Source: Kiritimatiellia bacterium
GTDB lineage: Bacteria; Verrucomicrobiota; Kiritimatiellia; JAAZAB01
DNA length: 64,000 nt
Assembly: GCA_040767085.1 (NCBI GenBank)
Contig: JAXGPF010000005.1
Span: 288,001 to 352,000 of the forward strand
Direction of reading: 5' to 3'
A program made the translations under genes and the position numbers. How positions within the stretch are numbered: position 1 is the first letter of the stretch; each line of letters begins with the position of its first letter. The notes beneath the pieces are model-generated. The model made no database searches and was not told the DNA's origin. It saw only the letters and a list, made by a program, of their open reading frames with translations. Of this stretch, positions 39,053 through 54,689 are shown piece after piece.

Positions 39053-40252
39053 TTATGTGCCGTGCTGGGAATCCTCGTCGATGTAATGCACAGGGATATC
39101 GCGGCGCATGTCAGCCAACAAGCAGGCCAGCATGCCGTCGCAGGTAAGCTGGCCAATGACGGCATCGTCGGCCAGGTGCAAGGCATATTCGTTGCACCAG
39201 GCGGCACGAGCCGCGCTGAACCCGGTCGCGGCCGCATCGAACGGGGTCATAATCAGAAGGCGGCCCGCATCCAGAGCGCGGTGTATGCGCGAAGTGAAAT
39301 GTGCGGGCAACCCACGCGCCAGAATCCAGACCATGGGAATGCCGCCGGCCAGGCAGGCATCGAAGACATCCCGTTCCATAGGCGAGAGGAATCCCGAAAT
39401 CACGCATCCCGGCCGTTTGGGCCATTTCGTAGGGGCGAAAGATTTTTCGCCCGTGCATGGGGCGAATGTTTTTTCGCCCAAAAAAGATTTTTCGCCCGTG
39501 TATGGGGCGAATGTTTTTTCGCCCGCGCATGGGGCGAATGTTTTTTCGCCCGCGCATGGGGCGAAAGATTTTTCGCCCGTACGGGATGCAAGAAATGCGG
39601 TCAGAGGAAGGTTGAGCAGCCCCCGATTGCCCATGAAGAAACGCGGCGCGCCATAGCGCAGGGTGTCCCAATGCGTGGGATTGTCCCGGATGTAATGCCG
39701 GATGTTGTCCAAAGCCCGCCCGTCCCGCACGATGATGTCGTAGTAGTTGCGTTGCCAGGGGGAATTGCCGCCCAGGAATTTGGTCACCCCAATTTTGAAG
39801 CCGCGGACAATGGAACCCAATGTGCGGGATGTCCCGCGAGGACGGCCATCCGGCGCGCCGAGAGTAGGGGCGAAAGATTTTTCACCCGCGCATAGGGCGA
39901 ATGTTTTTTCGCCCAAAAAAGATTTTTCGCCCGCGCATGATTTTCCGCCGAGATCATCGCCGGACACCATGATGATTCCATGCAAATGATCCGGCATGAC
40001 GATCCATTCGTCCAGGGCCGCCTGCGGGAAATGGCCGGGTATCGCCCGCCAGCAAGCATCTGCTGCGCGGCCCGCATCGTTCAATGCCATGCGGCCGTTA
40101 ACCACCGTGCCGAATAATGGGCGGCGGTCGGCAACGCACAGCGTCACGAAATACACCCCGCCCGCCGCATAGTCGTGCCCGCACAGCCGGATCGAATGGC
40201 GATGGTGAGCCGTCGGGTCGTACCCGGATTGCTTGGCCTGGGATGCCGCCAT
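39053..40252 (-). CDS. REP-associated tyrosine (Y1/HUH) transposase with C-terminal DprA/SMF (SLOG)-like domain
   Basis: RHSIRL..HDY...GVYFVTLC, IVMPDHLHGII (HUH), WQRNYYD...IRHYIRDNP (Y1). C-terminal GNRGLL..PLTAFLASR/VISGFLSPMER/LARG pattern. GGAGGAG ribosome-binding site before ATG 40252. Confidence 0.82.
   Translation of the reverse strand: MAASQAKQSGYDPTAHHRHSIRLCGHDYAAGGVYFVTLCVADRRPLFGTVVNGRMALNDAGRAADACWRAIPGHFPQAALDEWIVMPDHLHGIIMVSGDDLGGKSCAGEKSFLGEKTFALCAGEKSFAPTLGAPDGRPRGTSRTLGSIVRGFKIGVTKFLGGNSPWQRNYYDIIVRDGRALDNIRHYIRDNPTHWDTLRYGAPRFFMGNRGLLNLPLTAFLASRTGEKSFAPCAGEKTFAPCAGEKTFAPYTGEKSFLGEKTFAPCTGEKSFAPTKWPKRPGCVISGFLSPMERDVFDACLAGGIPMVWILARGLPAHFTSRIHRALDAGRLLIMTPFDAAATGFSAARAAWCNEYALHLADDAVIGQLTCDGMLACLLADMRRDIPVHYIDEDSQHGT
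39429..39582 (+). repeat. GTAG-type REP tandem cluster (27-bp units) inside the transposase CDS
   Basis: Five full and one partial copy of GGGCGAA(AGA/TGT)TTTTTCGCCC, starting with GTAG and ending with GTAC. Confidence 0.88.
39864..39932 (+). repeat. Second REP cluster inside the transposase CDS
   Basis: GTAGGGGCGAAAGATTTTTCACCC followed by one full and one partial unit. Confidence 0.85.
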
Positions 40253-40363: not shown

Positions 40364-40462
40364 CGCCGATTCACCGCCCCCCGCGTGGGGGGCGACGAGG
40401 AAATACAGAAGGACTAAACCAATGAGCAAGTTTCAATCCACGCCCCCCGCGTGGGGGGCGAC
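40364..40462 (-). CRISPR. Orphan type I-C-like mini-array (two repeats, one 33-bp spacer)
   Basis: Full repeat GTCGCCCCCCACGCGGGGGGCGTGGATTGAAAC (minus strand, 40430-40462), spacer 40397-40429, and a degenerate terminal repeat sharing 22 bp (40375-40396). Confidence 0.8.
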
Positions 40463-40672: not shown

Positions 40673-43334
40673 GGGACCATCCCCACGGGCGTGGGGAAAA
40701 CTGTAGACATCCACACGCGCACTGCGGACGGGAGGGACCATCCCCACGGGCGTGGGGAAAACCGCCGGCGCCGTGCCAAAGCCGACCTCCTGGCGGGACC
40801 ATCCCCACGGGCGTGGGGAAAACTTCCGCTGCACCCGCCGCAATAGCGGAATATGCGGACCATCCCCACGGGCGTGGGGAAAACGACGACGCATCAAAGT
40901 CGGATACCAGATATATGGGGACCATCCCCACGGGCGTGGGGAAAACAAAATCCGCCGGGTTGAGACCGGGCAAGCATCCGCCATTGGGGAAAACGCGCGC
41001 AGGCAATCAAGTGGCAATACATCGATACTCCCCACGGGCGTGGGGAAAACCGTTGCAATCGGCCCATCCCTTGGGGAAAACTGGCTTGGGCCCGTCGCAT
41101 AATACCTGATTATGGGACCATCCCCACGGGCGTGGGGAAAACAGCGGTTCCGCCGTCGGACCATCCCCACGGGCGTGGGGAAAACGCCGAACTGGCGAGT
41201 GATAGATCGCAGAGGGACCATCCCCACGGGCGTGGGGAAAACGCCCGACCGGCGCGAGCGTTTTAACGCCGCCGGACCATCCCCACGGTCAATTGCCGGC
41301 GGCAATCTGGCGGGCTATTCCCCACGGGCGTGGGGAAAACAGCACCTGGCCGATCACCCGATCCGGGCGTGCCGGATGGGACCATCCCCACGGGCGTGGG
41401 GAAAACGGCGAGGAAATTACGAATGGGACAGGGCGTGGGGAAAACATTACCACTAAACCAACGGTGATTATATCCACGGGACCATCCCCACGGGCGTGGG
41501 GAAAACTAAATATGCCCGGCAATTTCCGCAGGCGGGGGAAACTCCATTGGGCGCCATCCCCACGGGCGTGGGGAAAACCCAACATTAAGCTCGGGTTTCA
41601 TGGCTGGCGGACCATCCCCACGGGCGTGGGGAAAACGTGGGTTGCATTGTTATCTCCTGGTTGCTGCGGGACGGGCGTGGGGAAAACTGCGGCATGGTTC
41701 AGGGGACTATCCCCACGGGCGTGGGGAAAACTCGCGTTCGCACGGCGTCGGCGCCATCCCCACGGGCGTGGGGAAAACAACGTCCGCGCCATTTTCCATC
41801 CCCACGGGCGTGGGGAAAACCGGCATTTAAATCTGCGAATCCCCACGGGCGTGGGGAAAACCGTGCGAGACGCTTCTCGCCACGGACCATCCCCACGGGC
41901 GTGGGGAAAACAATGCGGAATGAGACCCCCTTGCCGCGTCGGGAGGCCACGGGACGGACGGGCGTGGGGAAACAGTCATCGCCCGCCAACCATCCCCACG
42001 GGCGGGGGAAAACGATAGATTGAAGTGATGGGACCATCCCCACGGGCGTGGGGAAAACCCGATAAATCCGATTTCAACCATCCCCACGGCGTGGGGAAAA
42101 CGATGGGCGGGCGGATAATTCGTTAATCAGGTGGACCATCCCCACGGGCGTGGGGAAAACGACCATTTTTCCAGTCGATTCCCCACGGGCGGGAAAACGG
42201 AATCCCCACGGGCGTGGGGAAAACAACGGCGTCCCCACGGGCGTGGGGAAAACCAGCATAGATCCTGGGGAAAACGTCTGGACCATCCCCACGGGCGTGG
42301 GGAAAACGCGACATTCCCCACGGGCGTGGGGAAAACGAAATGGCACGCTGACCATTTCGGGGAAAACTGTCTTCGGGGGGACCATCCCCACGGGCGTGGG
42401 GAAAACTGTAGGGCTGGGGCATCCAACGGTGGGTTTTCGGACCATCCCCACGGGCGTGGGGAAAACTCGCCATTTGCCGGACGGGATCGGGGACCATCCC
42501 CACGGGCGTGGGGAAAACCGCAGTCATCAAGACCGGACCATCCCCACGGGCGTGGGGAAAACCATTACGGATGGCGGATAATTCGGCGCCGGGGAAAACC
42601 ATATATACTTAATCGTAGGGCGACGGGAAGAGACAGAGACGCCGCATGATCCCATCCCCACGGGCGTGGGGAAAACGCCGATCGCGGCAAGAAAAACGGA
42701 CATTGCCGACCATCCCCACGGGCCTGGGGAAAACAATACAAACGATGCAGCCACGGACCATCCCCACGGGGAAAACGACGGGCGTGGGGAAAACTTTACC
42801 GTCGATAAAGCACATCAGTCATGAGACGGCGGACCATCCCCACGGGCGTGGGGAAAACACCATAAATTTCCCGCCACATGGAATCATCGGACCATCCCCA
42901 CGGGCGTGGGGGAAAACATGACGGAAAGCACCGAAACTCCTGAACCATCCCCACGGGCGTGGGGGAAAACGTTCCGGGTTGAGGGCGATTCCATAACTCC
43001 CGACGGACCATCCCCACGGGCGTGGGGAAAAACATGGTGGCGGCGCGGCCGCGGCGGTGGGACCATCCCCACGGGCGTGGGGAAAACCGGTAACGCCATC
43101 CGGCGGCCGCGTGGGAAACGGGGACCATCCCCACGGGCGTGAAAACGACCGTAATCAGGCAGCTCACCGGACCATCCCCACGGGCGGGGGAAAACTGCCC
43201 GGGGAGAAGAAGATCACGGCAGAACGGGCAGACGGCATACCTGGGGGACCATCCCCACGGGCGTGGGGAACACCAGACGCCCCGCGCCCGGCCGCGCTTC
43301 AGGCACGGACCATCCCCACGGGCGTGGGGAAAAC
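40673..43334 (-). CRISPR. Type I-E CRISPR array, about 55 full or fragmentary repeats, irregular in the middle
   Basis: Repeat GTTTTCCCCACGCCCGTGGGGATGGTCC(S) on the minus strand; 61-bp period at both ends; adjacent to I-E cas genes. Counted by eye. Confidence 0.96.
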
Positions 43335-43399
43335 ACCAAGATATAGGTGTCACTGCTCAAAAGATACCCAAGCCTTTGTGCAGATTCAAGATTGATTTG
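43335..43399 (-). promoter_or_regulatory. CRISPR leader with putative promoter
   Basis: AT-richer 65-bp gap before the first repeat; minus strand TTGAAT-N17-TATCTT at 43389-43361. Confidence 0.55.
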
Positions 43400-44185
43400 T
43401 CAAAGAACCGGATTGAGATGATATGGCGCAGGAGGCAAAACCGGCAGCGGCGCCCTATACCCATCGAAAGATCGTTTTAAAATAACACGTGATAACAGTA
43501 AAAGCGCGCGAACGTCGGCGGCGTTATATTTGAGCAATCGCGCAAGATTTGTTTTTTCATCCGGCATCGCCATATGGCGATGCCACAAGCAGGCGGCTTC
43601 CGCACCATCGCCATCTTCATCCGGCGCGCGCTTGATACCTAATTCATGCTCAATCTTCTTCAATCCACCGACATAACCATAAACGCGAATTTCATGCATC
43701 AGATCAATGTGTGGTGGCGAACACTTTAGTCCGAAGAATTGCGCTATCACCGGCCAGTCAAAACGCATGCCATTAAAAGTTACCAATACTTCAATTTTAC
43801 GTAATATTACGAGAAATTCGGATAAATTCATCCCCCGTATGAATTGCGACATCTGACCGGCTTGCCACAATCCAATCACAGTTAAATCGTCATTAACACC
43901 AAGCCCAGTGGTTTCGATGTCCATAAAAGCCACTCCGGCGGCAAAGTCCGGCCATATTCGCATGCGGTGACCGGGCGGTAGCCTTTTGATAAAATAGTCC
44001 GCCACTCTTCCCGACAAAGCCGCTATTAATTCCGGCATTTGTTCAGTCAAATCCGCCGCCTTACGCGGCGAAAGGACATGTCCGGCAAGCGGCAGACAAT
44101 CCCACGTCAGACATCCTGCTTGCCATAGGCGGCGCTCCGCCGCAGCGGAAATTCCCCGGAAACAACACAGGCTGCGCGTGAGCAT
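43400..44185 (-). CDS. RNase H-fold DEDDy 3'-5' exonuclease (YprB/RNase_H_2-like) with N-terminal HhH-like segment
   Basis: AFMDIETTGL, VTFNGMRFDWP, HIDL, GGLKKIE, YNAADV motifs; TGATG overlap with the cas2 stop. Confidence 0.87.
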   Translation of the reverse strand: MLTRSLCCFRGISAAAERRLWQAGCLTWDCLPLAGHVLSPRKAADLTEQMPELIAALSGRVADYFIKRLPPGHRMRIWPDFAAGVAFMDIETTGLGVNDDLTVIGLWQAGQMSQFIRGMNLSEFLVILRKIEVLVTFNGMRFDWPVIAQFFGLKCSPPHIDLMHEIRVYGYVGGLKKIEHELGIKRAPDEDGDGAEAACLWHRHMAMPDEKTNLARLLKYNAADVRALLLLSRVILKRSFDGYRAPLPVLPPAPYHLNPVL

Positions 44186-44487
44186 CACTCGGTCTCCAGT
44201 TTTTCCGAATCAGCCCACGCTTCAGCCAGTAATTGGAGCCCAGACAATCGCACTTGCCGGCGCGGCGTGTCGCCAAAACATTCAATGCTAAAACCTTGAG
44301 AGGTCCGCTCCGTACCGATGACCAGCATGCCTAGTCCAGGGGCATTCCGGCGAATATATTCCAAAGTTTTGGATCGAGTGCGAGTATTGACACTGCCAAC
44401 AAACACATTTGGCCGGGGCTCAATGAACCAACGTTTAAGCATGCCCCGGATAGCCGGCGGAGTTTCGTTAGTTAGAATAACGGTCAT
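44185..44487 (-). CDS. cas2: Type I-E Cas2
   Basis: PPAIRGMLKRWFIEPRPNVFVG...QGF; 100 aa; follows cas1. Confidence 0.94.
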   Translation of the reverse strand: MTVILTNETPPAIRGMLKRWFIEPRPNVFVGSVNTRTRSKTLEYIRRNAPGLGMLVIGTERTSQGFSIECFGDTPRRQVRLSGLQLLAEAWADSEKLETE

Positions 44488-45323
44488 GCATCCTCAAAGA
44501 GGTTTTCAATGTCTTTCGGCATGCGTTGCAGAAGGCGGCGATCCTCGATATGGAATTTCAACCGTGTAATCACGTCGTCTTCTGTCGCATCCGGTTTCAG
44601 GCCGATGGTTTCGAAAGCCGCCGGCAAGGTAGTTTCCGGCTTATAAATATCGGCAATATCCAGAGCAAATGCCCGCATGGAATTGGTGTGAATGAATCCC
44701 AGCGCCGGCAAATACCCCAGAGCATAAACCACTGAAGTCGTCAGCGCATAAAGCGCGGCATTAGCGGCGGAAACCGCGCGGTTGATGTTGTCGGCCAATT
44801 CCCAATTATTCGGGTTGTAATTGCGGCCTTTCCAAGTCACACCATATCGAACACCTAAATCAGCGTAAAGCGCCTTAACACGGCGACCTTCCATCCCACG
44901 CAATTCTTTTATGGCGATACTTGAGACATCCACACCTGCGAAACGCAGACTGAACATGCGGCGCGCGACAATATCCCGCTTGCTTTTTGACACAGCGAGT
45001 TCCGCCTGACGCCGGGCACGCTCGTTGTCATGAGTTGGCGCAACGCCATGCGCATAAAAATGCGTTCCTTCTGTACCTACCCAACATACGGTTGTGTTGC
45101 ATTCAGAACAGGCCTTTATAGCGGCATGGGTTACAGTAGTTCCCGGACCGAGCAACACCACGCTGAGCGAAGCCACCGGTAAGCGGAACACCGTGCGATC
45201 GGCGCCGATCCATTTCACGCTGGAGTCATCAACTTCAATGCGGCCATGTTCCAGGTAGATCGGCGTCCAGCATTCACGTACCGGAGGAAGTGTTTCCAAC
45301 GGCGGGCGCTCAAACACCGGCAT
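44484..45323 (-). CDS. cas1: Type I-E Cas1
   Basis: LLGPGTTVTHAA, LRGMEGRRV, LGFIHT, DIADIYK. Confidence 0.96.
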   Translation of the reverse strand: MPVFERPPLETLPPVRECWTPIYLEHGRIEVDDSSVKWIGADRTVFRLPVASLSVVLLGPGTTVTHAAIKACSECNTTVCWVGTEGTHFYAHGVAPTHDNERARRQAELAVSKSKRDIVARRMFSLRFAGVDVSSIAIKELRGMEGRRVKALYADLGVRYGVTWKGRNYNPNNWELADNINRAVSAANAALYALTTSVVYALGYLPALGFIHTNSMRAFALDIADIYKPETTLPAAFETIGLKPDATEDDVITRLKFHIEDRRLLQRMPKDIENLFEDA

Positions 45324-45326
45324 GTG

Positions 45327-46013
45327 TCATCCTTCCTGACGCGTGGCGGCTATTTTGCGAATCCGGCGCGGATTGAATTCGCGTGTCGCAAAATTTAACG
45401 GCGAATCCATTAATGTGTCCGTGCCATCGCTAAACGACGTCGCGTCTTCAATCCGCGTGAATTCGGTAAGATTGTGCCCGGCCAAGTCTAATGCCGCCAT
45501 GGCATCCTCGATGGAAGCCGCCACATTGCCGTGCACAATCGGCGAGGCTGGGATGCAGTTTTTGCGCCCGAACCAGACACCCCAACGCGGGTTGCGTAAT
45601 GCCCCGGCAATTTCCTCCAACACTTCTCGTGGCCCGGCCAGGATGACGCCAAACCTGGCATCGAGTAGGTATTGACGACGCGATATGACCGCATCCTTTT
45701 TAATTTTATTTTCGGCGCTGCGGGTACCGCTAACCGTATGAAAGTCATCCAACCGCCTGATTTCCAGCGGCGGACGGGAACCGTCAGGCTGACGCCGGAT
45801 TTCCAGTATTGTCATGCGCAAGGATTCCATGCGCGTCAAACTATTTCGCTCAGCATCGGTTCCTTTTGCTAGACCTTGCGCGGCGCAAATCATGCCGAGC
45901 AGTGCGCTGCGCGTCGGGTGTAAAGCCGTGGTGCGCCGCTGGAATCGGCTGGCGAAGCCAAAGCTCATCAGCGGCGCATCCAGCATGAGCGCGAGATAAG
46001 ATTGTTCAGACAT
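45327..46013 (-). CDS. cas5e: Type I-E Cas5 (CasD)
   Basis: LDAPLMSFG..SRF..R.T..HPTRSALLGMICAAQG, DFHTV, YLLDARF, FGRKNCIP. Confidence 0.94.
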   Translation of the reverse strand: MSEQSYLALMLDAPLMSFGFASRFQRRTTALHPTRSALLGMICAAQGLAKGTDAERNSLTRMESLRMTILEIRRQPDGSRPPLEIRRLDDFHTVSGTRSAENKIKKDAVISRRQYLLDARFGVILAGPREVLEEIAGALRNPRWGVWFGRKNCIPASPIVHGNVAASIEDAMAALDLAGHNLTEFTRIEDATSFSDGTDTLMDSPLNFATREFNPRRIRKIAATRQEG

Positions 46014-47157
46014 GTTTTAAAATCTCTCCGCAAAATTCATCCAATGATCTAACGAGCTTGGCAACTTCCGTGACTGAATCGTTCAATAGTCTATCGGACA
46101 AGGCAACTTCCGCGACTGTTTTGATCCCCCAAGTGTTTTTTAATGCTTTGTGATGTTTTGTTAACTCCGTAATGGATTCATCCACAAACCCGTTTTTTGA
46201 CCTAACCGGTTTCTCGAAGGCATTAACGAGCTGTATCGGCTGACCATGATCCTTGACAATCCCCAGCACATACACTGGCCGCGTGTTTGCATTCATGGAA
46301 TTCTTCCGTGCGCCAGGCACGGCCTGCAATGTTGCGCGGATAAAAGCGTCCACCACTTGCTTGTGTGCTTCCGGGGAAAGCGCTCCGAGATGATCGGCAT
46401 CTGTCAAAAGATCAAGATTAAGAGCAGCGTAGCGGTAATAGCAGGCGGAGTTGAATTCCGCCGTGCCCATATTAGCAGCGCCAGCGTCATCCCCTTTTTG
46501 TTTTTCATCCTCCACTGCCGTCCAGAAATCAAGATCATTGTCTGATTTATGTGTGGAAAGAGCGTGACTGAACATTCCGGCGCCTTCCAACGTCACATCG
46601 CTAGCGTTGGCTACCATACGTCCAAAAATAGCTATGTCGGCAGCGTCTTTTGGGATGCCTTTCCCAAGCGCCTTAATGGCAGCATCTTTCAACAACTTTG
46701 CATCAATACCGGACTTGTCCTGCCGCGCCTTGTGAACCCCCCCGGCTATGATTTTTATTTCTTCCGGTGAAAAATAAAGTAATGTGCTCGTTTGCTCCTG
46801 TTCCGCAGATGACTCTACATCCGCCGGTTTTTTCCCTTTCTTAGCTTTTGGCAGTTCTTTTGCCAAAAATAGATGAAGTACCTCTTCCGCGGTCTTACGT
46901 GCTTCCGACTGATCCCATCCGTACTGACCGACCAACGCCTTTGTTAAATCGTCGGCAGCCTTTCGTGTACGACTTCCCTTGAATGCGGTGTTATTGATTT
47001 CTCGCGCCATCTCCCGGATGGCGCGTTTCTGGCATTGGCTGGAGATGCGGGCACGGGTGCATCCGCCAAAGATGGCGGTTTTGGGCGCATTGACATCATC
47101 ACGGTTGAGGCATGACACGGGGAACGACTGGAGAATATGGAGTTCGATTAATTTCAT
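46006..47157 (-). CDS. cas7e: Type I-E Cas7 (CasC/Cse4)
   Basis: IELHILQSFPVSCLNRDD..APKT..FGG..RARISSQ, DIAIFGRMVA, HALSTH, YYRYA. Confidence 0.96.
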   Translation of the reverse strand: MKLIELHILQSFPVSCLNRDDVNAPKTAIFGGCTRARISSQCQKRAIREMAREINNTAFKGSRTRKAADDLTKALVGQYGWDQSEARKTAEEVLHLFLAKELPKAKKGKKPADVESSAEQEQTSTLLYFSPEEIKIIAGGVHKARQDKSGIDAKLLKDAAIKALGKGIPKDAADIAIFGRMVANASDVTLEGAGMFSHALSTHKSDNDLDFWTAVEDEKQKGDDAGAANMGTAEFNSACYYRYAALNLDLLTDADHLGALSPEAHKQVVDAFIRATLQAVPGARKNSMNANTRPVYVLGIVKDHGQPIQLVNAFEKPVRSKNGFVDESITELTKHHKALKNTWGIKTVAEVALSDRLLNDSVTEVAKLVRSLDEFCGEILKHV

Positions 47158-47218: not shown

Positions 47219-48127
47219 TTATGGATGCAGGCCTCCTTTCGGAATTATTTCCGGCAAGCAGGTGTGGCGGCTCAACTTGTTACGCAACACCTCGTGAAGT
47301 CTCGGTTTATCGCGGGCATACAATGAAACCAGCTTTTTTTCAGCCTGCTGATAGAGTTTTTTCTTTTCCATCATGCCGATTTGATAATCGAGGTTATCCT
47401 CCATGCCCCAATATTCGATGTATAAGTCAAATTCCGGCAGGTAATAATCAGGACGGATGGCATAACCCTTGATTATGCGAAAGCGGTTGTCGTAGCGAAA
47501 AACGATGCCCAACGCCGCGAGTTCCTCGGCAATAATGCGCTCGCCATCGGACTGCACCACCGTGCCATTGCCAGCTTGAATTGTTTTATTCAATTCCACC
47601 TGGGTTTCCCAATTTCGGCGCTTAAGGAAGACTTCATCGAAGCAAATGTCACAATATGTGCGCTGAAAAGCCTTTTGCGACCGCGCATATTCATCGGCCG
47701 CAACCGGTCTGTCACACCGCCCACACTTATGCACGACGCCTTGTTCAGCGATCCGCACGGCTTCGCGGATGGTCTTGCCGGCGGCGATAACGGAGCGCTT
47801 TACATAGTCCTTTTCGGTCGGATTTTGTTGGAGGTCACATAAATCCGGCAAGGCGGATTGGGCCGCTACTCCAAATGCGCCCAACGCCTTAGCGGCATAC
47901 TGTCGCACTTGCGGGTGCTGGTCTGCCAGCAATGGACGCAGCAAGTCCACCGACACCGCGGAGTCCACAATCCCCGCAAGCTTACCAACGGCAGAGGCGG
48001 CCAGACGGCGTACCAAGGGCGACTCCGACCGCGTAAAACCGGCCAATTCGGGCAGGACATCGGCGCCGGCGCTTTCACCAAGCGCAGCGGCACGGGCGGC
48101 AAGTCGTCTTTCATTGGCAATATTCAT
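47219..48127 (-). CDS. HEAT-repeat + Cys4 + PD-(D/E)XK nuclease-like protein inserted in the cas operon
   Basis: PBS-lyase/HEAT repeats (PLVRRLAASAVGKL, PQVRQYAAKALG), CGRC...CDIC, and VQSDGERIIA...RPDYYLPEFDLYIEYWGM. Confidence 0.78.
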   Translation of the reverse strand: MNIANERRLAARAAALGESAGADVLPELAGFTRSESPLVRRLAASAVGKLAGIVDSAVSVDLLRPLLADQHPQVRQYAAKALGAFGVAAQSALPDLCDLQQNPTEKDYVKRSVIAAGKTIREAVRIAEQGVVHKCGRCDRPVAADEYARSQKAFQRTYCDICFDEVFLKRRNWETQVELNKTIQAGNGTVVQSDGERIIAEELAALGIVFRYDNRFRIIKGYAIRPDYYLPEFDLYIEYWGMEDNLDYQIGMMEKKKLYQQAEKKLVSLYARDKPRLHEVLRNKLSRHTCLPEIIPKGGLHP

Positions 48128-48181
48128 AGAGAATATCCACACGACTTTTTACGCGTCTCGGATGACGCTACATCGCGTCGT

Positions 48182-48796
48182 TCAGGCAGACGGAACGATG
48201 GCCAGCAAGCCAAAGCCAAACCCCTTGGCAGAACCGATTCCCCGAAGGAAGGCGGCTTGAAAAGCTGCCGGATCTACTACTGTCAAAACACCATCATACT
48301 CCACGGCATGGTGGAAGCCTGAATTCTTGCGTTTTTCAATTTGAAACCATTCACGCCCTTGCGGAATAATGCACAAGTTTTCCTCATTAACCGCGAAACC
48401 GGACTGCGCGGCCTTGCGCTTGATCCAGTCGGTCTGCTCCTGCGTAGTTCGTAATGGCAAACGTTTACGGCTGACGTTGTCGCGCTTGGTGGGATTGGCG
48501 CGCAGTTGGAAGCGATATTGCCGGTGCTTAAAAAAAGACTGTGGGATTTCACGGGTCTGCCAGGCATCAGCTATGGCGGGCCATCCGTCGGGGCGGACTG
48601 GCGGCCGCGGAGATACAATCAGAAGCCTAAATACTTGATCGCGCGTCCGGTGTTCAAGCCGTGTGAGAAAGTCACGCGGTTCGCCGGCACGATCAGGAAA
48701 AGCAGCCCAGACAAGCTGATGCCAGTCATATACATCGCGGATTTTCAACCGGGCGGCGGTTTCACAATCGAGGAATGCCTGAGTCAGAAATTTCAT
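48182..48796 (-). CDS. cas6e: Type I-E Cas6 (CasE/Cse3)
   Basis: YDWHQLVWAAFP, FQLRANPTK, glycine-rich loop GIGSAKGFGFGLL. Confidence 0.95.
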   Translation of the reverse strand: MKFLTQAFLDCETAARLKIRDVYDWHQLVWAAFPDRAGEPRDFLTRLEHRTRDQVFRLLIVSPRPPVRPDGWPAIADAWQTREIPQSFFKHRQYRFQLRANPTKRDNVSRKRLPLRTTQEQTDWIKRKAAQSGFAVNEENLCIIPQGREWFQIEKRKNSGFHHAVEYDGVLTVVDPAAFQAAFLRGIGSAKGFGFGLLAIVPSA

Positions 48797-49323
48797 AATT
48801 TCGCCTCGGTTGCGGGGGTGGTTTCTTCGGAATCCATCAAGTTGGCCGCAACGCCATCATCCGGCTCAGCGGCACCCCAAAACGACTTAGCCCAAGCGAC
48901 TTGGACATGATCACCCCACCAGAGCAAGTCGGACAGAAGTTGAGTATAATTGACATGCATACCTTTGGCGTGCGCGGCGCGGACAACAGGTACAATCCGT
49001 TCGGGAATTTCATTGAAATCGCAGCTTAAAAGACGTTTTAAGCGACCCTCGAATGAATTATGTTCGCCTTTTAGTTGAGCTAATGTGTCCCCCAGATTTC
49101 CGGCGGAACAAGCCAACTCCGGCGCCATGGCCCAAAGCGCGGCAACCACCTCATACCGCCGGTCGCCGATGGCGTCCTTGAAAGCGCCCAATATAGGCCA
49201 GGCATTGGGACGGCGGGCTTCGCTGAGTGCGCCACGCAAATTGGCAAGCGCGCCGCGATCTTCCTTGTAACGTTGCAGGGAATGAACAAAGGCAACTGCT
49301 AGCGGATGTATCCTTGGGCTCAT
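48793..49323 (-). CDS. cse2: Type I-E Cas11 (CasB/Cse2)
   Basis: DRGALANLR, RLKRLL, VNYTQLLSDLLWW, WAKSFW; follows cse1. Confidence 0.9.
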   Translation of the reverse strand: MSPRIHPLAVAFVHSLQRYKEDRGALANLRGALSEARRPNAWPILGAFKDAIGDRRYEVVAALWAMAPELACSAGNLGDTLAQLKGEHNSFEGRLKRLLSCDFNEIPERIVPVVRAAHAKGMHVNYTQLLSDLLWWGDHVQVAWAKSFWGAAEPDDGVAANLMDSEETTPATEAKL

Positions 49324-50882
49324 GTTTCCTCCTCTTCGACGACGGATTGATTTTCATTGTTTTCGAGCGGCTTGAACAACACTTTCAGCCCCTCACAATA
49401 CGCCCTCATTTGGCGCGGGGTGTCATGCGGGCAGGCTAGTTCGTAGGCATCCCGGGCGGCGCGTGCTAATGCCCGTCCCCATTCTGTGCCGTGCCAGTGT
49501 TCCTTGCCGGAATTATCGGGGTCAAGCAACGCGGGGTTTTTTACTATAACCAGTAACAGTGGCACCTGTTGTTCAATGGCGGTCCAGTAGTGTGCGGCGG
49601 CTTTTTGTTTTATTAGCCCGCCACGCAAGCGTGATTCAGGCCGGCGCAAATCATCTTTAATGGCGGCATGATAATCGGCAACCGCGAAATTGATTTTTTT
49701 GCCCCAGGATTCGGCCTGCGCCACGCCCTGCTGATAAAGTTGCCGGCCGGCATCGGCAAACATTTGCATGGGTACATGTAAAACCGATTCGATGACATCA
49801 ATTATATTAGTGGTTTTTCTAGGCTCATGAACGACCGCGCCGGCAAAAACATCGATGTCAAGATCATCTTCAATATTTTGTAGGACTAATGGTCCGCCCA
49901 GATGATTATTTTGATCATATTTTCGGACAGTTATAACATGCAACTCGCGCCATAACGCCTTGGCGACAGATCCCTCTAATTGCCGTCGTTCGTCATCCCG
50001 GTAAGCGGATTGGTAAATCGTAGCCATTGGATCACGCCAACCGCTATTCGCAAATGAAGGATAATCCAAGGCGCCACCCCAGATCATGGAACGACTGTCC
50101 TGCAAATGCACCGCTCGCGATATTGGCACAAGACGCCCGACATATGTTTTAACTGCATTATCAACGGCCGGATGATCGCCGGGCCCATCGGGCATTAATT
50201 CCCAAACGGGATACCCCCACGCTTGCTTCAGCATGGATACTTGATCTTTATTGATCAAATTCATCCAGATGGAATCCAACAATGAAGTGCGATTTAAAAT
50301 CATCGTGTGAACCATCTTGCCCGCCAAACCAGGCGATGCCGCGTTCCCCGCTTTTTTTGTCCGAACGCCCTTCCACATGCATTCTGAAAGCAGCCCGCCC
50401 GATGAAAACAACTGAAACACCAGCAACATGAGCGCTAATTGCGCAGGCATAAATTCACGCAATTCACCGCCGGCATTGTCAAAAAGCGTCGGCGCGGCCC
50501 CAGTTGCCAATGCGGAATCAAGCTTACTCAACGAAATCAACTTGGTTTCATCCCTGGTGGCGGTGTTACTAACATTGGCCACCTGCAAAAACCGCTGGCC
50601 GTCACCGAAAAGTTCAAAGGCGTGTTTCCATTTGGCGAGATAATCGGCGGCGGCTTGGGGAAGTCTTTTTCGGCAACTCTGCCACTCTTCGCGGTCTTTG
50701 GGGCCATCCAACGCGGCTTGGGCAATGCAGATCAGCAGACGCATGAGCGCAATGCGCTCATGCGGACGCACGGCCAGGTCGCGGATATTTTCGCCATGTT
50801 GAAACACATCCAGCAGGCTGACTTTGCCTGCATGGCCATCATCCCAAACCACCGGAATCCATTTATCAATCGTAAGATTCAT
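49320..50882 (-). CDS. cse1: Type I-E Cas8e (CasA/Cse1)
   Basis: MNLTIDKWIPV, ALMRLL, FELF...RFLQ, ALWR; 520 aa; follows cas3. Confidence 0.92.
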   Translation of the reverse strand: MNLTIDKWIPVVWDDGHAGKVSLLDVFQHGENIRDLAVRPHERIALMRLLICIAQAALDGPKDREEWQSCRKRLPQAAADYLAKWKHAFELFGDGQRFLQVANVSNTATRDETKLISLSKLDSALATGAAPTLFDNAGGELREFMPAQLALMLLVFQLFSSGGLLSECMWKGVRTKKAGNAASPGLAGKMVHTMILNRTSLLDSIWMNLINKDQVSMLKQAWGYPVWELMPDGPGDHPAVDNAVKTYVGRLVPISRAVHLQDSRSMIWGGALDYPSFANSGWRDPMATIYQSAYRDDERRQLEGSVAKALWRELHVITVRKYDQNNHLGGPLVLQNIEDDLDIDVFAGAVVHEPRKTTNIIDVIESVLHVPMQMFADAGRQLYQQGVAQAESWGKKINFAVADYHAAIKDDLRRPESRLRGGLIKQKAAAHYWTAIEQQVPLLLVIVKNPALLDPDNSGKEHWHGTEWGRALARAARDAYELACPHDTPRQMRAYCEGLKVLFKPLENNENQSVVEEEET

Positions 50883-53472
50883 CGTCTTCCTCCTCCATAT
50901 TACGCCCTACCGCGCCGGCGCCAGCCGACCATTTTGGAATAACCACACCCAAGTCATCCCGATAGGTCAAGCCGGATGCTTCACCAGTCGCCAAGCTTAA
51001 AAGTTTTTCGCCATCCAATTTACAGGCCACCATACCATGCCCATGCGTATATTCCCTCAGCCAGTCCGGCACTCGCTGGTGACGAGCTTCCACACACCAG
51101 CACGGCACATTCACCAGGTTGCGATGAATGCTCCGGGCGACGTCCAGACTGAATTTTCCGGTTTTAATTTCGCATTTCTCGCCATTTAGCAGTGTAAAGC
51201 GTGCACCGGTTCTGCCATCCCATGCAAAGATTTTACAGACAAGCAAAACTGCAACCGACGGGCATGAATTCCACCGGGTTTGAACACCTTCTTTATCATC
51301 AAACGCAATTAGCCAAGGATTACCAATGGAAATAGCGGCATTATGCAGTTCTTTACACCGTTCATCCAGTTTTACGCCCAGACTGCGCCAAGCCACCGGC
51401 TCATCATCCGATGGATCGGCATAAGTCGCCTCCAGCAGCGGGCGAATGTCGGCGGGCAAGTTAATTTCGGAATATTTCCGCCATAAATCAAATGTCCGCA
51501 ACAGCACATACGGCGCATATACCTTCGCGCTTTTCCCGAAGGCGGCTTTGATGGCGGCTATATCCGCGGAGCGAAGAGCGGCGGCGGCCAACGCCGGTGA
51601 GGCAATCCACGCCTCCGGCACGTTACAACCGGGGGGACGCGGACGTGGGTGCCGCCAGAGCCGGCCAATGCGCTGGAGCAACATATCCGTGGGGGCCAGA
51701 TCGGTGATCAATAAATCGGCGTCTATATCCACGCTTTGCTCGGCCACCTGTGTGGACACAAGCACGCAGCCTCCGGTTGGCCGGCTGGATTGTTCCTTGC
51801 CCAGCCGTTCCAGCCAGTCTTCTTCCAGTTGCGCGCGCCGGAACTGCGGGAAACGGGCATGCAGCAAGGCAATCTCCGGACCGCCAGCCTGGTTTTGACC
51901 AAGCAAGCGGCGATAAGTTTCCTGGGCATCGTTTACGGTATTGCGGATCCAGAGGACACATGCGCCGCACTTGGCGCGTTCAAGGCAGGACGCTTCTAAT
52001 GCCGCTTGGGGGATGAATCGAAGATGCACCTTCTTTGGTGCATCCGGCGGCACCGGACACCGCACCAGTCCGCCATTGCGGACCGCTGAAATCAATGGAT
52101 AATCCGCGGAGCGCGCCGACACAGTTTTCTCCAGCCCCAGCAATTTTTCCCGCCGGACGGCGGTGAGCGTGGCGGAAAGGATTATGACCGTGGCGCCTAA
52201 TTCACGCAGACGGGTCACAAGCTGATCAATCAACGTTCCGGTGTAAAGATCATAGGAATGGATTTCGTCAAGAATGACAACCTTGCCAGCCAAGCCATAT
52301 TGACGTACGAAAAAATGTTTGGCCGCCACAACCCCAAGCAAGGCCTGATCCACCGTGCCGACGCCGAACGGCGCCAATAGAGCTCGACGCGGCGAAGCAA
52401 ACCAATCGCGGATAGTATAACTTTTCCGATCGGAATTATCGCCGGTAAACTCCGCGCCATTGACGATTTCAGAATCATCCAACAACCATGAATTTCCATG
52501 CGTCAGCCGGACGCCAGCGCCTGGAATGATCCGATCAATAAAATCCGCCACCCGTTTATGAATCCGGTTGCTGGTGACCTGGGTCGGCAGGGCAAAATAA
52601 ATACCCGTGGCCTGGCCTGTGGCAAGTAAATTATAAGCGGCTATCAGCGCGGCTTCCGTTTTGCCGCAGCCCATGGCAGCTTCGATGATATAAACACCAG
52701 GATAACTGACAAGTTCAGAAAATACTTTCTGCATGGCATTAGGCAAAAACGGCGGGAACATGTCAGTAAATATTTTCCCCGCCAAACACGATACGGGCTG
52801 AAATCCAATCCGCTTAAGCTGGGACTCTCCCCGCGCGCGAATGGCGGCGGCATCCAAAATCAAGTCCGGCGGAAATGATGCTTCATCGGACGCCAGCCAA
52901 TCGGCCACAACAATCAGACCGGCATTAAACCATAACTCGCCACAATCGAACTTCACCGGCACATCTGGCAATGGCCCAAATACCTTCAACAATTCATCCA
53001 TCAGGCGGCGGCGTTCCTCCGTCCAAGATTCACCACCGTCGCAAAGCTGATTGATACGATCGCCTTTCAACCTGCCATGATGGGCGCCGACAATCGCTGC
53101 CCAGAAACGCAAGTCATTTTTCACCAAGACATCTTGGAGCGTCTTTTGACTGATTTTGGCATGATCGTCGATCAAGCCCGCAACATCGGCAATGCTTAAA
53201 CCATGCTTTTTCCGCCACATCTGACATTTCACCTGAAATCCCGGCGACACTTTTCCGACATCGTGTAATGCGGCAAGCACAATACCGTTGTGCATTTTTA
53301 ACAAATCGCGCAGCCACACCGGATGTTGCGCGGTTAACAACCCGGCGATAATACCGGCGGTGCGGCAATGCTGCGAAACGGAAATGCCCGGCAATTCATC
53401 CGGCGTTGTCTTGGCCCAGCATTCCGTATATTTGATGTCGTTTCCCATCTCTAAATCGCACCCCCCCCCCAT
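50866..53472 (-). CDS. cas3: Cas3 HD nuclease-helicase
   Basis: LHDVGK, AHHG, VADWLAS, GCGKTEAAL, DEIH, SAT, QRIGRLWRH. The start is ATG 53472 (TAATG overlap) or ATG 53448. Confidence 0.96.
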   Translation of the reverse strand: MGGGCDLEMGNDIKYTECWAKTTPDELPGISVSQHCRTAGIIAGLLTAQHPVWLRDLLKMHNGIVLAALHDVGKVSPGFQVKCQMWRKKHGLSIADVAGLIDDHAKISQKTLQDVLVKNDLRFWAAIVGAHHGRLKGDRINQLCDGGESWTEERRRLMDELLKVFGPLPDVPVKFDCGELWFNAGLIVVADWLASDEASFPPDLILDAAAIRARGESQLKRIGFQPVSCLAGKIFTDMFPPFLPNAMQKVFSELVSYPGVYIIEAAMGCGKTEAALIAAYNLLATGQATGIYFALPTQVTSNRIHKRVADFIDRIIPGAGVRLTHGNSWLLDDSEIVNGAEFTGDNSDRKSYTIRDWFASPRRALLAPFGVGTVDQALLGVVAAKHFFVRQYGLAGKVVILDEIHSYDLYTGTLIDQLVTRLRELGATVIILSATLTAVRREKLLGLEKTVSARSADYPLISAVRNGGLVRCPVPPDAPKKVHLRFIPQAALEASCLERAKCGACVLWIRNTVNDAQETYRRLLGQNQAGGPEIALLHARFPQFRRAQLEEDWLERLGKEQSSRPTGGCVLVSTQVAEQSVDIDADLLITDLAPTDMLLQRIGRLWRHPRPRPPGCNVPEAWIASPALAAAALRSADIAAIKAAFGKSAKVYAPYVLLRTFDLWRKYSEINLPADIRPLLEATYADPSDDEPVAWRSLGVKLDERCKELHNAAISIGNPWLIAFDDKEGVQTRWNSCPSVAVLLVCKIFAWDGRTGARFTLLNGEKCEIKTGKFSLDVARSIHRNLVNVPCWCVEARHQRVPDWLREYTHGHGMVACKLDGEKLLSLATGEASGLTYRDDLGVVIPKWSAGAGAVGRNMEEEDDESYD

Positions 53473-54665
53473 TACACCCGCCGGGCGCCGTGTTTTTCCA
53501 GAATATTCGTAATCTTCCCGAGATCGGCGGCGTTTTTGACGTGGCGGCCGGCAATCAACACAAGATCCCAGATGCGCCCGTTGGGTGTCAGCACCCGCCG
53601 GGACGAGCCGGGCTCCTGGTTGGAATGCGCGGCGTAATATTTGCGGATGTCGTCATGCAACGCCTTTTCCAGGCTCGGCACAATTAGCCGCAATTCCAAC
53701 AGCCGGATCAGGAACGCCTCGGCGGATACGCCGAACCGGTGCTTGATCCGATACAGTAACTCCGGCGTCCATTCGCCCGGGCGCAACCCCAACTGACGCA
53801 CCGTCGCGCATACCGCCGATTCGGGCATGAGGAACAATCCCGCAAACCGCCGGGCCGCCCGCGCTGCCGTAAACAACTTGCCGCGCCGGTCTTTGCCGAC
53901 TTGCGGCCGCGGCAGATGCCGATAATAGGCCGGCGCATGCATATAAAGCCGTCCCAATTCGTAGGCCAACAGGTACAACTGGCGTTCAGCGTTCAGCTTG
54001 ACATCATCCAGGAAGATAAAAGCATTGGCATTTTTTATGTCATGGCAACTGATGCTCTCCACGCCGGGCGGCAGCCGGCAGAAAATCACCCGTAATCCGG
54101 CATTCTCGAACAATTCGAGATAATCGAAGATCACGGCGTCGCTGATGCCCAACAGACGCCGGACCTGCCCGCAAAGCCGCTGCAAACCCTCTTCCGTGCG
54201 GTCAGCCGCCAGCACCAACGGCAATTCGGCGGATTTGACGGCGTGGCTCATGTCTTCCAGCGCCAAAAAAGCGTCCGCCAGCTCGCTGGCCATCCCGCAC
54301 AATTGATGCGGCAAACCGGCCAGTTCACGGCGGGTGCGGGCGGGTAAGGCGCAGGGACCATGCCAGAGTGGTTTTTCCGCAGCCACCATGTACGGTACGC
54401 CGGCTTCACGGGCAACCATGGCGTCCAAACCGCCAACAGGTCCATCCGCCGGCGGAGTAAAGAAAACATCCACCGGTTCGTCCAGGATTCGGGGAAGGGC
54501 GTGCAAAACACGGGCGCCAGGCAGATTGCGCCCTTTTTCGATGCAATTCAAAGGCCCTGGCCGCATGCCCAGCCGCGCCGCCAACTCGGCCTGACTGAGA
54601 TGAGCGCGCAGGCGAACCGCGCGGATATTGGCGCCAACATGCTTTAACGAAGAATCTTTTGGCAT
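53472..54665 (-). CDS. XRE-family HTH regulator fused to an ImmA/IrrE (M78)-like domain with degenerate active site
   Basis: VGANIRAVRLRAHLSQAELAARLG...IEKGRNLP HTH; NAERQLYLLAYELGRL in place of the RFTLAHELGH motif; FAGLFLMP; RFGVSAEA. Alternative starts at 54674/54677. Confidence 0.85.
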   Translation of the reverse strand: MPKDSSLKHVGANIRAVRLRAHLSQAELAARLGMRPGPLNCIEKGRNLPGARVLHALPRILDEPVDVFFTPPADGPVGGLDAMVAREAGVPYMVAAEKPLWHGPCALPARTRRELAGLPHQLCGMASELADAFLALEDMSHAVKSAELPLVLAADRTEEGLQRLCGQVRRLLGISDAVIFDYLELFENAGLRVIFCRLPPGVESISCHDIKNANAFIFLDDVKLNAERQLYLLAYELGRLYMHAPAYYRHLPRPQVGKDRRGKLFTAARAARRFAGLFLMPESAVCATVRQLGLRPGEWTPELLYRIKHRFGVSAEAFLIRLLELRLIVPSLEKALHDDIRKYYAAHSNQEPGSSRRVLTPNGRIWDLVLIAGRHVKNAADLGKITNILEKHGARRV

Positions 54666-54689
54666 GCCGAACATCATGCATGTTTTTAT

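Follow-up and report, generated by a model that had tools for sequence, protein, structure and literature searches.

A stand-alone exonuclease gene of the PF13482 (RNase_H_2) family lies between cas2 and the leader of a type I-E CRISPR array in a Kiritimatiellia bacterium (GenBank assembly GCA_040767085.1, contig JAXGPF010000005.1, positions 288,001 to 352,000). We consider its product to be probably a dedicated, unfused trimmer of prespacer 3′ ends that is co-translated with Cas2 and serves Cas1-Cas2. The whole 64,000-nt stretch analyzed is called the window, and positions below are counted from its first letter. Type I-E systems work without Cas4, and exonucleases assist Cas1-Cas2 in trimming; unfused DEDDh exonucleases are common among the ancillary genes of CRISPR loci, and type I-E is known to include Cas2/DEDDh fusions (Wang et al., 2023, PMC10284694, cited here and below for the relevant excerpts of that article). 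CRISPR-associated 3′-5′ exonucleases are thus a known kind of protein, and what appears to be new here is the PF13482 family as an unfused neighbor of cas2.

The exonuclease gene was listed as an open reading frame (ORF) at 43400-44188 with a GTG start, one codon longer than the gene as adopted here. All 42 aligned relatives begin with ML..., i.e., at the codon after the listed GTG, and the start is therefore placed at the ATG of 44185-44183, giving a protein of 261 aa. On the minus strand the junction with cas2 reads GAGTGATGCTC, with a GGAG element spaced 8 nt from the start (GGAG-ACCGAGTG-ATG), and one base (A) is common to the cas2 stop TGA (44187-44185) and the exonuclease ATG. The exonuclease stop (43402-43400) is followed by 65 bp (43335-43399) and then by the first full repeat, GTTTTCCCCACGCCCGTGGGGATGGTCC, at 43334-43307. 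An initial annotation of this DNA had described an unfused gene whose ATG overlaps the cas2 stop, which ends 65 bp before the first repeat and which encodes intact DIETTG, FNG..FD and YN..D motifs. Each of these points holds: the overlap is a single base, the gene is a separate ORF after an unfused 100-aa cas2, the 65-bp distance is exact, and the motifs are found at residues 89-94 (DIETTG), 137-143 (FNGMRFD), and 220-225 (YNAADV).

Pfam PF13482 matches residues 87-233 of the window protein (E 1e-27, 97.6 bits vs. a cut-off of 22) and is its only Pfam match at E ≤ 0.01, with no PF00929, PF01930, or TPR. No substitution of D89, E91, D143, Y220, or D224 occurs in the alignment of 43 family members (43 of 43 invariant) or in any of the 12 members encoded next to cas2. 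Motif III is Y-x3-D (Y220-N-A-A-D224), not H-x4-D, which places the protein in the DEDDy subgroup as the initial annotation had it. The family assignment made there (RNase_H_2, YprB-like) was equally sound, given the PF13482 match and the nearest solved relative: when a profile of 43 relatives was compared with solved structures, the best match was MrfB of Bacillus subtilis (8un9, E 8.9e-13), with other DEDD enzymes far behind. An AlphaFold2 model of the window protein (predicted local distance difference test score 94.3, predicted template modeling score 0.91) has a helical N-terminal domain (residues 1-79), and its residues 80-248 best match the exonuclease domains of family B polymerases (Z 14-16 over 145-160 residues, root-mean-square deviation 2.4-4.3; Foldseek E 1.2e-4), so that an RNase H-like fold resembling the PolB exonuclease is predicted. 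An Atlas search with residues 1-86 returned fragments of the same family only. Excerpts of Majorek et al. (2014, PMC3985635) place PF13482/COG3359 next to PolB exonuclease clusters and call the family uncharacterized and presumably 3′-5′ exonucleolytic. MrfB is a Mg/Mn-dependent 3′-5′ exonuclease that hardly attacks an RNA 3′ end and has linear and nicked double-stranded DNA as well as single-stranded DNA among its substrates (PMC11194089, in the parts cited here and below). By analogy with MrfB, the window protein is predicted to be a Mg-dependent 3′-5′ DNA exonuclease. The PF13482-type family is large: of 1.84 billion representatives, 6692 match at E ≤ 0.001, a number that falls to 1839 at E ≤ 1e-10 and to 761 at E ≤ 1e-30.

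The genomic context of the family was drawn from three sources: the best 80 of 386 relatives' loci in GTDB species genomes; 80 metagenome loci, among which the relatives listed are at most 42% identical to the window protein and do not include the 49-83% identical relatives of the protein search; and 401 genomes of the window's phylum, with longer stretches around the best matches. These gave 203 loci, which were labeled for cas genes by tblastn with the window's own I-E Cas proteins. In 12 distinct loci, I-E cas1 and cas2 lie immediately upstream of the homolog (the window, G320, G350, G323, G062, G326, G185, which is the same as L002, G053, L003, L005, L082, and L083); L003 and L005 are labeled as metagenome-assembled genomes of Lentisphaeria, and L082 and L083 are metagenome contigs. 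Wherever the cas-linked contigs extend far enough, an I-E array follows the exonuclease. A further copy stands after cas2 in G356, of which the contig contains the first 132 nt before it breaks off. The arrangement is not due to chance, as it recurs in 12 other loci. For the phylogeny, the 203 loci were reduced to 191 distinct proteins and 176 rows, the 15 rows dropped being 12 fused forms of more than 420 aa and 3 fragments, none of them cas-linked by tblastn. In a quick IQ-TREE run on the 176 rows, all 12 cas2-adjacent rows fell inside one clade of 13 leaves, with a value of 100 in the Shimodaira-Hasegawa-like approximate likelihood ratio test. The cas label needs 2 changes on this tree, a number as low as which was reached in 0 of 500 shuffles. 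The cas2-linked clade that the initial annotation had proposed to look for by phylogeny thus exists, and its concern that the closest homologs might lack any cas association is answered by 12 of 13 clade leaves standing directly after an I-E cas2.

Within the 12 complete cas2-adjacent loci, the exonuclease start overlaps the cas2 stop in nine (by 1 nt in four, in the form ATGCTGA/GTGCTGA in another four, and by 20 nt in one), and the other three have gaps of 0, 5, and 13 nt; the partial copy in G356 shows the same kind of overlap. The GC content of the exonuclease gene matches that of the cas genes. The ratio of non-synonymous to synonymous substitution rates (dN/dS) is 0.12 for the exonuclease between the window and G320 and 0.20 between G350 and G323; the same pairs give 0.20 and 0.10 for cas2, and cas1 gives 0.06. 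Judged by these ratios, the cas2-adjacent exonuclease clade is under purifying selection. A 269-nt contig from a metatranscriptome library equals 43779-44047 without mismatch, a weak hint of expression given that DNA may be present in such libraries.

What follows cas2 was also surveyed across the phylum. I-E Cas1 was found at E ≤ 1e-40 in 41 of the 401 genomes, and the DNA downstream of cas1 was classified by what comes after cas2. A PF13482 exonuclease occupies this slot in 9 genomes (G000, G320, G323, G350, G062, G326, G185, G053, and, as a partial copy, G356), a stand-alone PF00929 RNase_T gene in 3 (G294 and G363, with 189 aa each, and G252), and a Cas2-PF00929 fusion of 288-293 aa in 4 (G374, G047, G086, and G275). 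No gene follows cas2 in 21 genomes, where the array starts 41-195 bp beyond it. The slot could not be classified in 4 genomes: G105 has an NA37-like ORF and no array was found there, G042 ends at that point of the contig, G107 has no cas2 by tblastn, and G119 has a chimeric-looking contig end. A 3′-5′ exonuclease therefore lies at the 3′ side of cas2 in 16 of the 37 classified loci, by three non-orthologous arrangements; as the genomes are kin, these counts describe lineages and not independent events. The slot gene of G294 matches the CAS-associated DEDDh model of PADLOC (PDLC01247) at E 4.4e-24; the window protein, which scores only E 6.7e-4 against it (18.3 bits, residues 121-169), is not of this known type. 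The 9 carriers of the PF13482 gene are exactly the 9 loci whose Cas1 is at least 71% identical to that of the window; in the next-nearest loci (Cas1 59-66%), the array stands directly after cas2.

Several side observations concern the other slot occupants. In G252 (L214, 1894-2781), cas2 and the PF00929 exonuclease share one frame with a single TGA between them, which could be a split fusion or read-through. Cas2-DEDDh fusions and free DEDDh genes of the phylum are found at loci L230, L231, L233, L234, L209, and L215. In L232 (G119:C35:1-594), the Cas2 ORF continues into a segment resembling chorismate synthase at the end of the contig, and this contig end is most likely chimeric.

The exonuclease gene sits between cas2 and a short conserved leader, and its end is where the end of cas2 lies elsewhere. 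In nine loci the exonuclease stop and the first repeat are 48-91 bp apart; a tenth locus has 188 bp between them. The leader motif TCTTTGACAA is conserved across the leader alignment of 10 exonuclease-linked loci. Of 6 sister loci that lack the exonuclease, 4 (L204-L207) have the form TCTTTGA[AC]AA at 57-69 bp upstream of repeat 1; there it contains the cas2 stop in L204 and L207 and lies inside the 3′ end of cas2 in L206. Since the motif includes the stop of the exonuclease in the window but that of cas2 in two sister loci, the end of the exonuclease gene appears to have taken over the position of the cas2 end. A sigma-70 scan gave no minus-strand promoter in the leader, despite the TTGACA inside the conserved motif, which may be a -35 box or an integration signal.

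In the array itself, the 4-5 leader-distal units are regular (28-nt repeat and 33-34-nt spacer), and the leader-proximal three quarters are garbled, with spacers of 1-96 nt, truncated or partial repeats, and single-base indels. Related arrays are regular. Short-read contigs from three runs contain regular repeat-spacer-repeat pieces of 85-91 nt with spacers that are absent from the window. Taken together, the garbled leader end and the regular pieces with other spacers indicate that the garbling is probably a consensus artifact of a population differing at the leader end, and such differences suggest ongoing spacer acquisition. One contig in each of the runs X2 and X4 carries repeat 1 and 12 nt of leader (to 43346), followed by 255 nt unlike the window; these contigs may come from a strain variant or from a further array that has this repeat but a different leader. 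Beyond the array trailer (39429-39939 and 40375-40462) are hairpin-forming repeats of the GGGGCGAAAGATTTTTCGCCC type, in 4 copies of a 76-nt family, and two identical 22-nt palindromes 66 nt apart (families D9 and D17 for the region). These units and palindromes look like repetitive extragenic palindromic (REP) elements.

We favor prespacer trimming as the role of the enzyme because DEDDh genes and fusions fill the same slot and because of the activity of MrfB. Cas2 and the exonuclease would be made together by translational coupling, in line with the overlap observed in the sequence. Cas1-Cas2 would bind DNA fragments with 3′ overhangs, as established for the E. coli I-E system and for Cas2/DEDDh (PMC10284694), and the exonuclease would then chew the single-stranded 3′ overhangs in the 3′-5′ direction until blocked by Cas1 or the integrase footprint, as the activity of MrfB and the equivalence with the DEDDh slot lead us to expect. 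The trimmed 33-bp prespacer would be inserted at the leader-proximal repeat next to the short leader. The DEDDy protein would thus do in trans the job of the DEDDh domain in Cas2-DEDDh trimmer-integrases and of DnaQ/ExoT in E. coli. We infer that its substrates would be prespacers bound by Cas1-Cas2 and that it would make physical contact with the integrase. The strongest new support, which goes beyond the initial annotation, comes from the PF00929 genes and Cas2-DEDDh fusions in the same slot of sister I-E loci. A complex prediction with two Cas1, two Cas2, and residues 1-240 of the exonuclease, run with 12-row alignments and without controls, gave no answer (score 0.00) and is neutral on binding.

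The closest known counterpart is the Cas2/DEDDh trimmer-integrase related to that of Megasphaera NM10 (PMC10284694). In both cases a DEDD/RNase H-like 3′-5′ exonuclease is attached to the I-E adaptation module on the 3′ side of cas2, and the job expected of both is the trimming of prespacer 3′ overhangs; fusions of this kind are present in 4 genomes of the phylum. In contrast to the fusion (PF00929, H-x4-D), the window protein is a separate polypeptide of PF13482 with the Y-x3-D motif and an 85-residue helical N-terminal domain found only in its own family. A search for a fusion of Cas2 with PF13482 itself gave 2 longer proteins related to the window Cas2, neither with PF13482, which is weak evidence, and none of the best 150 of the 6692 family representatives has an N-terminal extension the size of Cas2, the largest offset being 48 residues. 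The stand-alone DEDDh ancillary genes (PDLC01247; PMC10284694, in a passage citing Makarova et al., 2020) are likewise unfused exonucleases within CRISPR-Cas loci, and in G294, G363, and G252 they lie in exactly the same slot, from cas2 to the array; the window protein belongs to another Pfam family, has another fifth catalytic residue, and is about 70 residues longer. A Cas2-DnaQ of Streptococcus thermophilus was reportedly described by Drabavicius in 2018.

The comparison with MrfB (YprB), an enzyme of mitomycin-C repair in B. subtilis, is one of family more than of context. Both proteins belong to the same Pfam family and have the DEDD carboxylates in common, but MrfB has His (HNxxD) at the position of Tyr220 (YNxxD), and its authors call it a DEDDh enzyme (PMC11194089). 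MrfB also has a C-terminal TPR domain and a partner helicase, MrfA (YprA) (PMC11194089), whereas the 261-aa window protein has no TPR match and no MZB domain was found in its genome; the context of MrfB is repair and that of the window protein is CRISPR. The DEDDy proofreading domain of family B polymerases, the best structural match, has the Y-x3-D form of motif III in common with the window protein, which stands alone without a polymerase domain. Cas4 is, like the window protein, an accessory adaptation nuclease encoded next to cas1 and cas2. Cas4 cuts endonucleolytically at the protospacer-adjacent motif (PAM); its fold and chemistry are unrelated to those of the window protein, which is a predicted exonuclease without a PF01930 match. 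No literature was found that ties PF13482, COG3359, YprB, or MrfB-like proteins to CRISPR loci, though catalogs (Makarova et al., 2020; the supplements of 10.1101/270033) could list the family. The excerpts of PMC3985635 that treat PF13482/COG3359 make no CRISPR link for it, and DEDD or RNase H-like exonucleases are not mentioned in the main text of the preprint on CRISPR-linked genes (10.1101/270033).

A number of observations weigh against a role as prespacer trimmer. Among 147 immediate-neighbor proteins at 75 other GTDB loci, Pfam found no Cas domains; a few of these neighbors belong to DNA repair or replication, namely UvrC (two cases), UvrA, OGG, the PolD small subunit (three cases), and a UvrD-PDDEXK protein. 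The sole characterized member of the wider family also acts in DNA repair. The 13th leaf of the clade, G358, has a Methyltransf_4 gene as its neighbor, and its 13.8-kb contig is devoid of cas genes. The carriers are kin, with five family codes, and much of the recurrence is accounted for by a single insertion in an ancestor that was then passed on with the locus. No exonuclease gene follows cas2 in 21 of the 37 classified I-E loci, and the array period is 61 bp (28-nt repeat and 33-nt spacer) in exonuclease-linked and exonuclease-less loci alike. The enzyme therefore does not set spacer length and may be dispensable; both a trimmer halted by the integrase footprint and a helper that can be done without would agree with this equally well. 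Finally, the window genome has one PF13482 gene, the present one, beside two ordinary RNase_T-family genes elsewhere, and a housekeeping role for this sole copy is conceivable.

Three other explanations have to be weighed. The enzyme might act at another step of CRISPR adaptation, either by producing or cleaning up prespacer precursors from Cas3 degradation products in primed adaptation or by processing 3′ flaps and gaps during repeat repair after integration. The linkage evidence points to the adaptation module and not to one particular step, MrfB degrades linear and nicked double-stranded DNA besides single-stranded DNA (PMC11194089), and the gene borders directly on the leader, the place at which intermediates of integration form. 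However, the slot otherwise holds DEDDh genes and Cas2-DEDDh fusions, the Cas2/DEDDh fusion that has been studied trims prespacers (PMC10284694), and no data favor post-integration repair, and we regard this explanation as unlikely.

Alternatively, the gene could be a passenger, i.e., a general DNA-repair or end-processing exonuclease that was inserted once between cas2 and the leader and is co-expressed without a CRISPR role. The family is widespread, as its 6692 representatives (E ≤ 0.001) show, with a match at E ≤ 1e-10 in 36 of the 401 phylum genomes, and no CRISPR link was found outside the clade, whether among the 147 neighbors by Pfam or by tblastn with I-E Cas1 and Cas2, which gave no match at the non-clade loci (the remaining loci were covered by tblastn and k-mer repeats only). 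Moreover, the clade member G358 is not cas-linked, the window genome has no other copy, and a single insertion would be enough for related carriers. What stands against a passenger is that the same position is kept across Cas1 identities down to 71% and exonuclease identities down to 33%, that the start/stop overlap is kept and dN/dS is 0.12-0.20, and that two other exonuclease arrangements occupy the identical slot of sister loci, which is hard to explain by hitch-hiking. In addition, a distant paralog away from cas genes has been retained beside the cas-linked copy in G323 and G185, which is what specialization of the latter would lead one to expect. A mere passenger is therefore improbable in our view. 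It is just as improbable that the enzyme helps interference by extending Cas3 nicks or degrading target 3′ ends as an extra effector nuclease: it is a predicted DNA 3′-5′ exonuclease in the same operon as Cascade and Cas3, but its coupling is to cas2, where the operon's adaptation genes lie, and not to cas3, Cas3 already provides nuclease and helicase, and the Cas2-fused DEDDh domains in the equivalent slot tie the function to Cas2.

Two possible CRISPR links outside the clade were rejected as coincidental. The repeats at L087 form a REP-like tandem element, and the array at L136 is real, with a cas6, but lies 2.8 kb off, with a nitroreductase gene and a BrnT/antitoxin pair between. Weaker k-mer repeats were flagged at the non-clade loci L019, L036, L060, and L072.

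Going further than prespacer trimming by a free enzyme, the protein might be an obligate docking subunit of a distinct I-E adaptation variant, an "in-trans trimmer-integrase" that evolved jointly with the Cas1-Cas2 lineage to which it belongs (loci with Cas1 identity of 71% or more), uses PolB-type DEDDy chemistry, and engages the integrase or the prespacer through the N-terminal helical domain. We put this forward tentatively and consider it doubtful. If it were true, it would be the third independent recruitment of an exonuclease to the cas2-leader junction in one phylum, beside the fused and the free DEDDh, and a dedicated trimmer would be under recurrent selection in type I-E, in place of an optional use of host enzymes.

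The exonuclease belongs to a complete I-E operon. All eight cas genes match NCBIfam models at E ≤ 9e-15, and seven of the eight exceed the cut-offs of I-E models, including Cas1e (308.5 vs. 215.6) and Cas2e (73 vs. 33.15); Cas3 exceeds the cas3_core and cas3_HD cut-offs only. Coordinates of the features are collected in Table 1.

Table 1. Position of the exonuclease gene, its junctions, the CRISPR array, and the genes of the type I-E operon in the window.
Feature	Position	Strand	Details
CRISPR array, type I-E	40674-43334	minus	41 repeat cores
Leader stretch, exonuclease stop to repeat 1	43335-43399	minus	65 bp; from sequence
Leader motif TCTTTGACAA	43397-43406	minus	contains exonuclease stop TGA; 72 bp upstream of repeat 1
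Exonuclease gene, stand-alone PF13482 (MrfB/YprB-like, PolB-exo-like), predicted DEDDy	43400-44185 including stop	minus	261 aa; Pfam, alignment, AlphaFold2
cas2/exonuclease junction	44183-44197	minus	GGAG 44197-44194, 8 nt, ATG 44185-44183
cas2, type I-E, unfused	44185-44487	minus	100 aa; PF09707 E 4.6e-22; TIGR01873 equivalog E 1.7e-20
cas1, type I-E	44484-45323	minus	279 aa; TIGR03638 cas1_ECOLI E 3.4e-92, 308.5 bits vs. cut-off 215.6
cas5	45327-46013	minus	Pfam, NCBIfam
cas7	46006-47157	minus	Pfam, NCBIfam
HEAT_CxxC_PD-DEXK accessory gene	47219-48142	minus	307 aa; PADLOC PDLC01150 E 3e-125
cas6e	48182-48796	minus	Pfam, NCBIfam
cse2	48793-49323	minus	Pfam, NCBIfam
cse1	49320-50882	minus	Pfam, NCBIfam
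cas3	50866-53472	minus	Pfam, NCBIfam

The product of the 307-aa gene between cas6e and cas7 combines HEAT repeats and CxxC pairs with a PD-(D/E)xK-like region at its C terminus, and on these sequence features it is a second nuclease-type accessory gene of the operon. It is present in 7 exonuclease-linked loci (one copy degenerate) and in 61 of the 401 phylum genomes, many of them without the exonuclease or I-E Cas1, and in 0 of 14 control genomes. Directly upstream of cas3, a 401-aa protein with HTH_3 and Peptidase_M78 (IrrE-like) domains is encoded at 53472-54677 on the minus strand; it resembles RmrA and CapP of PADLOC and may regulate the cas operon in response to damage or phage. In the window genome, which is 95% complete, no Cas4 (PF01930) and no MrfA-type helicase (PF09369, MZB) were found. 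The window stretch occurs in landfill, sludge, and digester metagenomes.

Trimming in systems without Cas4, such as type I-E, is understood mainly from the host exonucleases of E. coli and from one Cas2-DEDDh fusion. The present locus family provides a naturally occurring alternative: an exonuclease of another family has been taken on as an independent protein, coupled in sequence to cas2 and kept across a lineage. With one phylum in which the slot is filled in three ways or left empty, it offers a comparative system for the effect of a trimmer on acquisition efficiency and on PAM and orientation fidelity, and for how a free trimmer finds the integrase. The finding adds PF13482 to the CRISPR ancillary families and gives the largely uncharacterized short form of this family a first functional context outside MrfAB repair.

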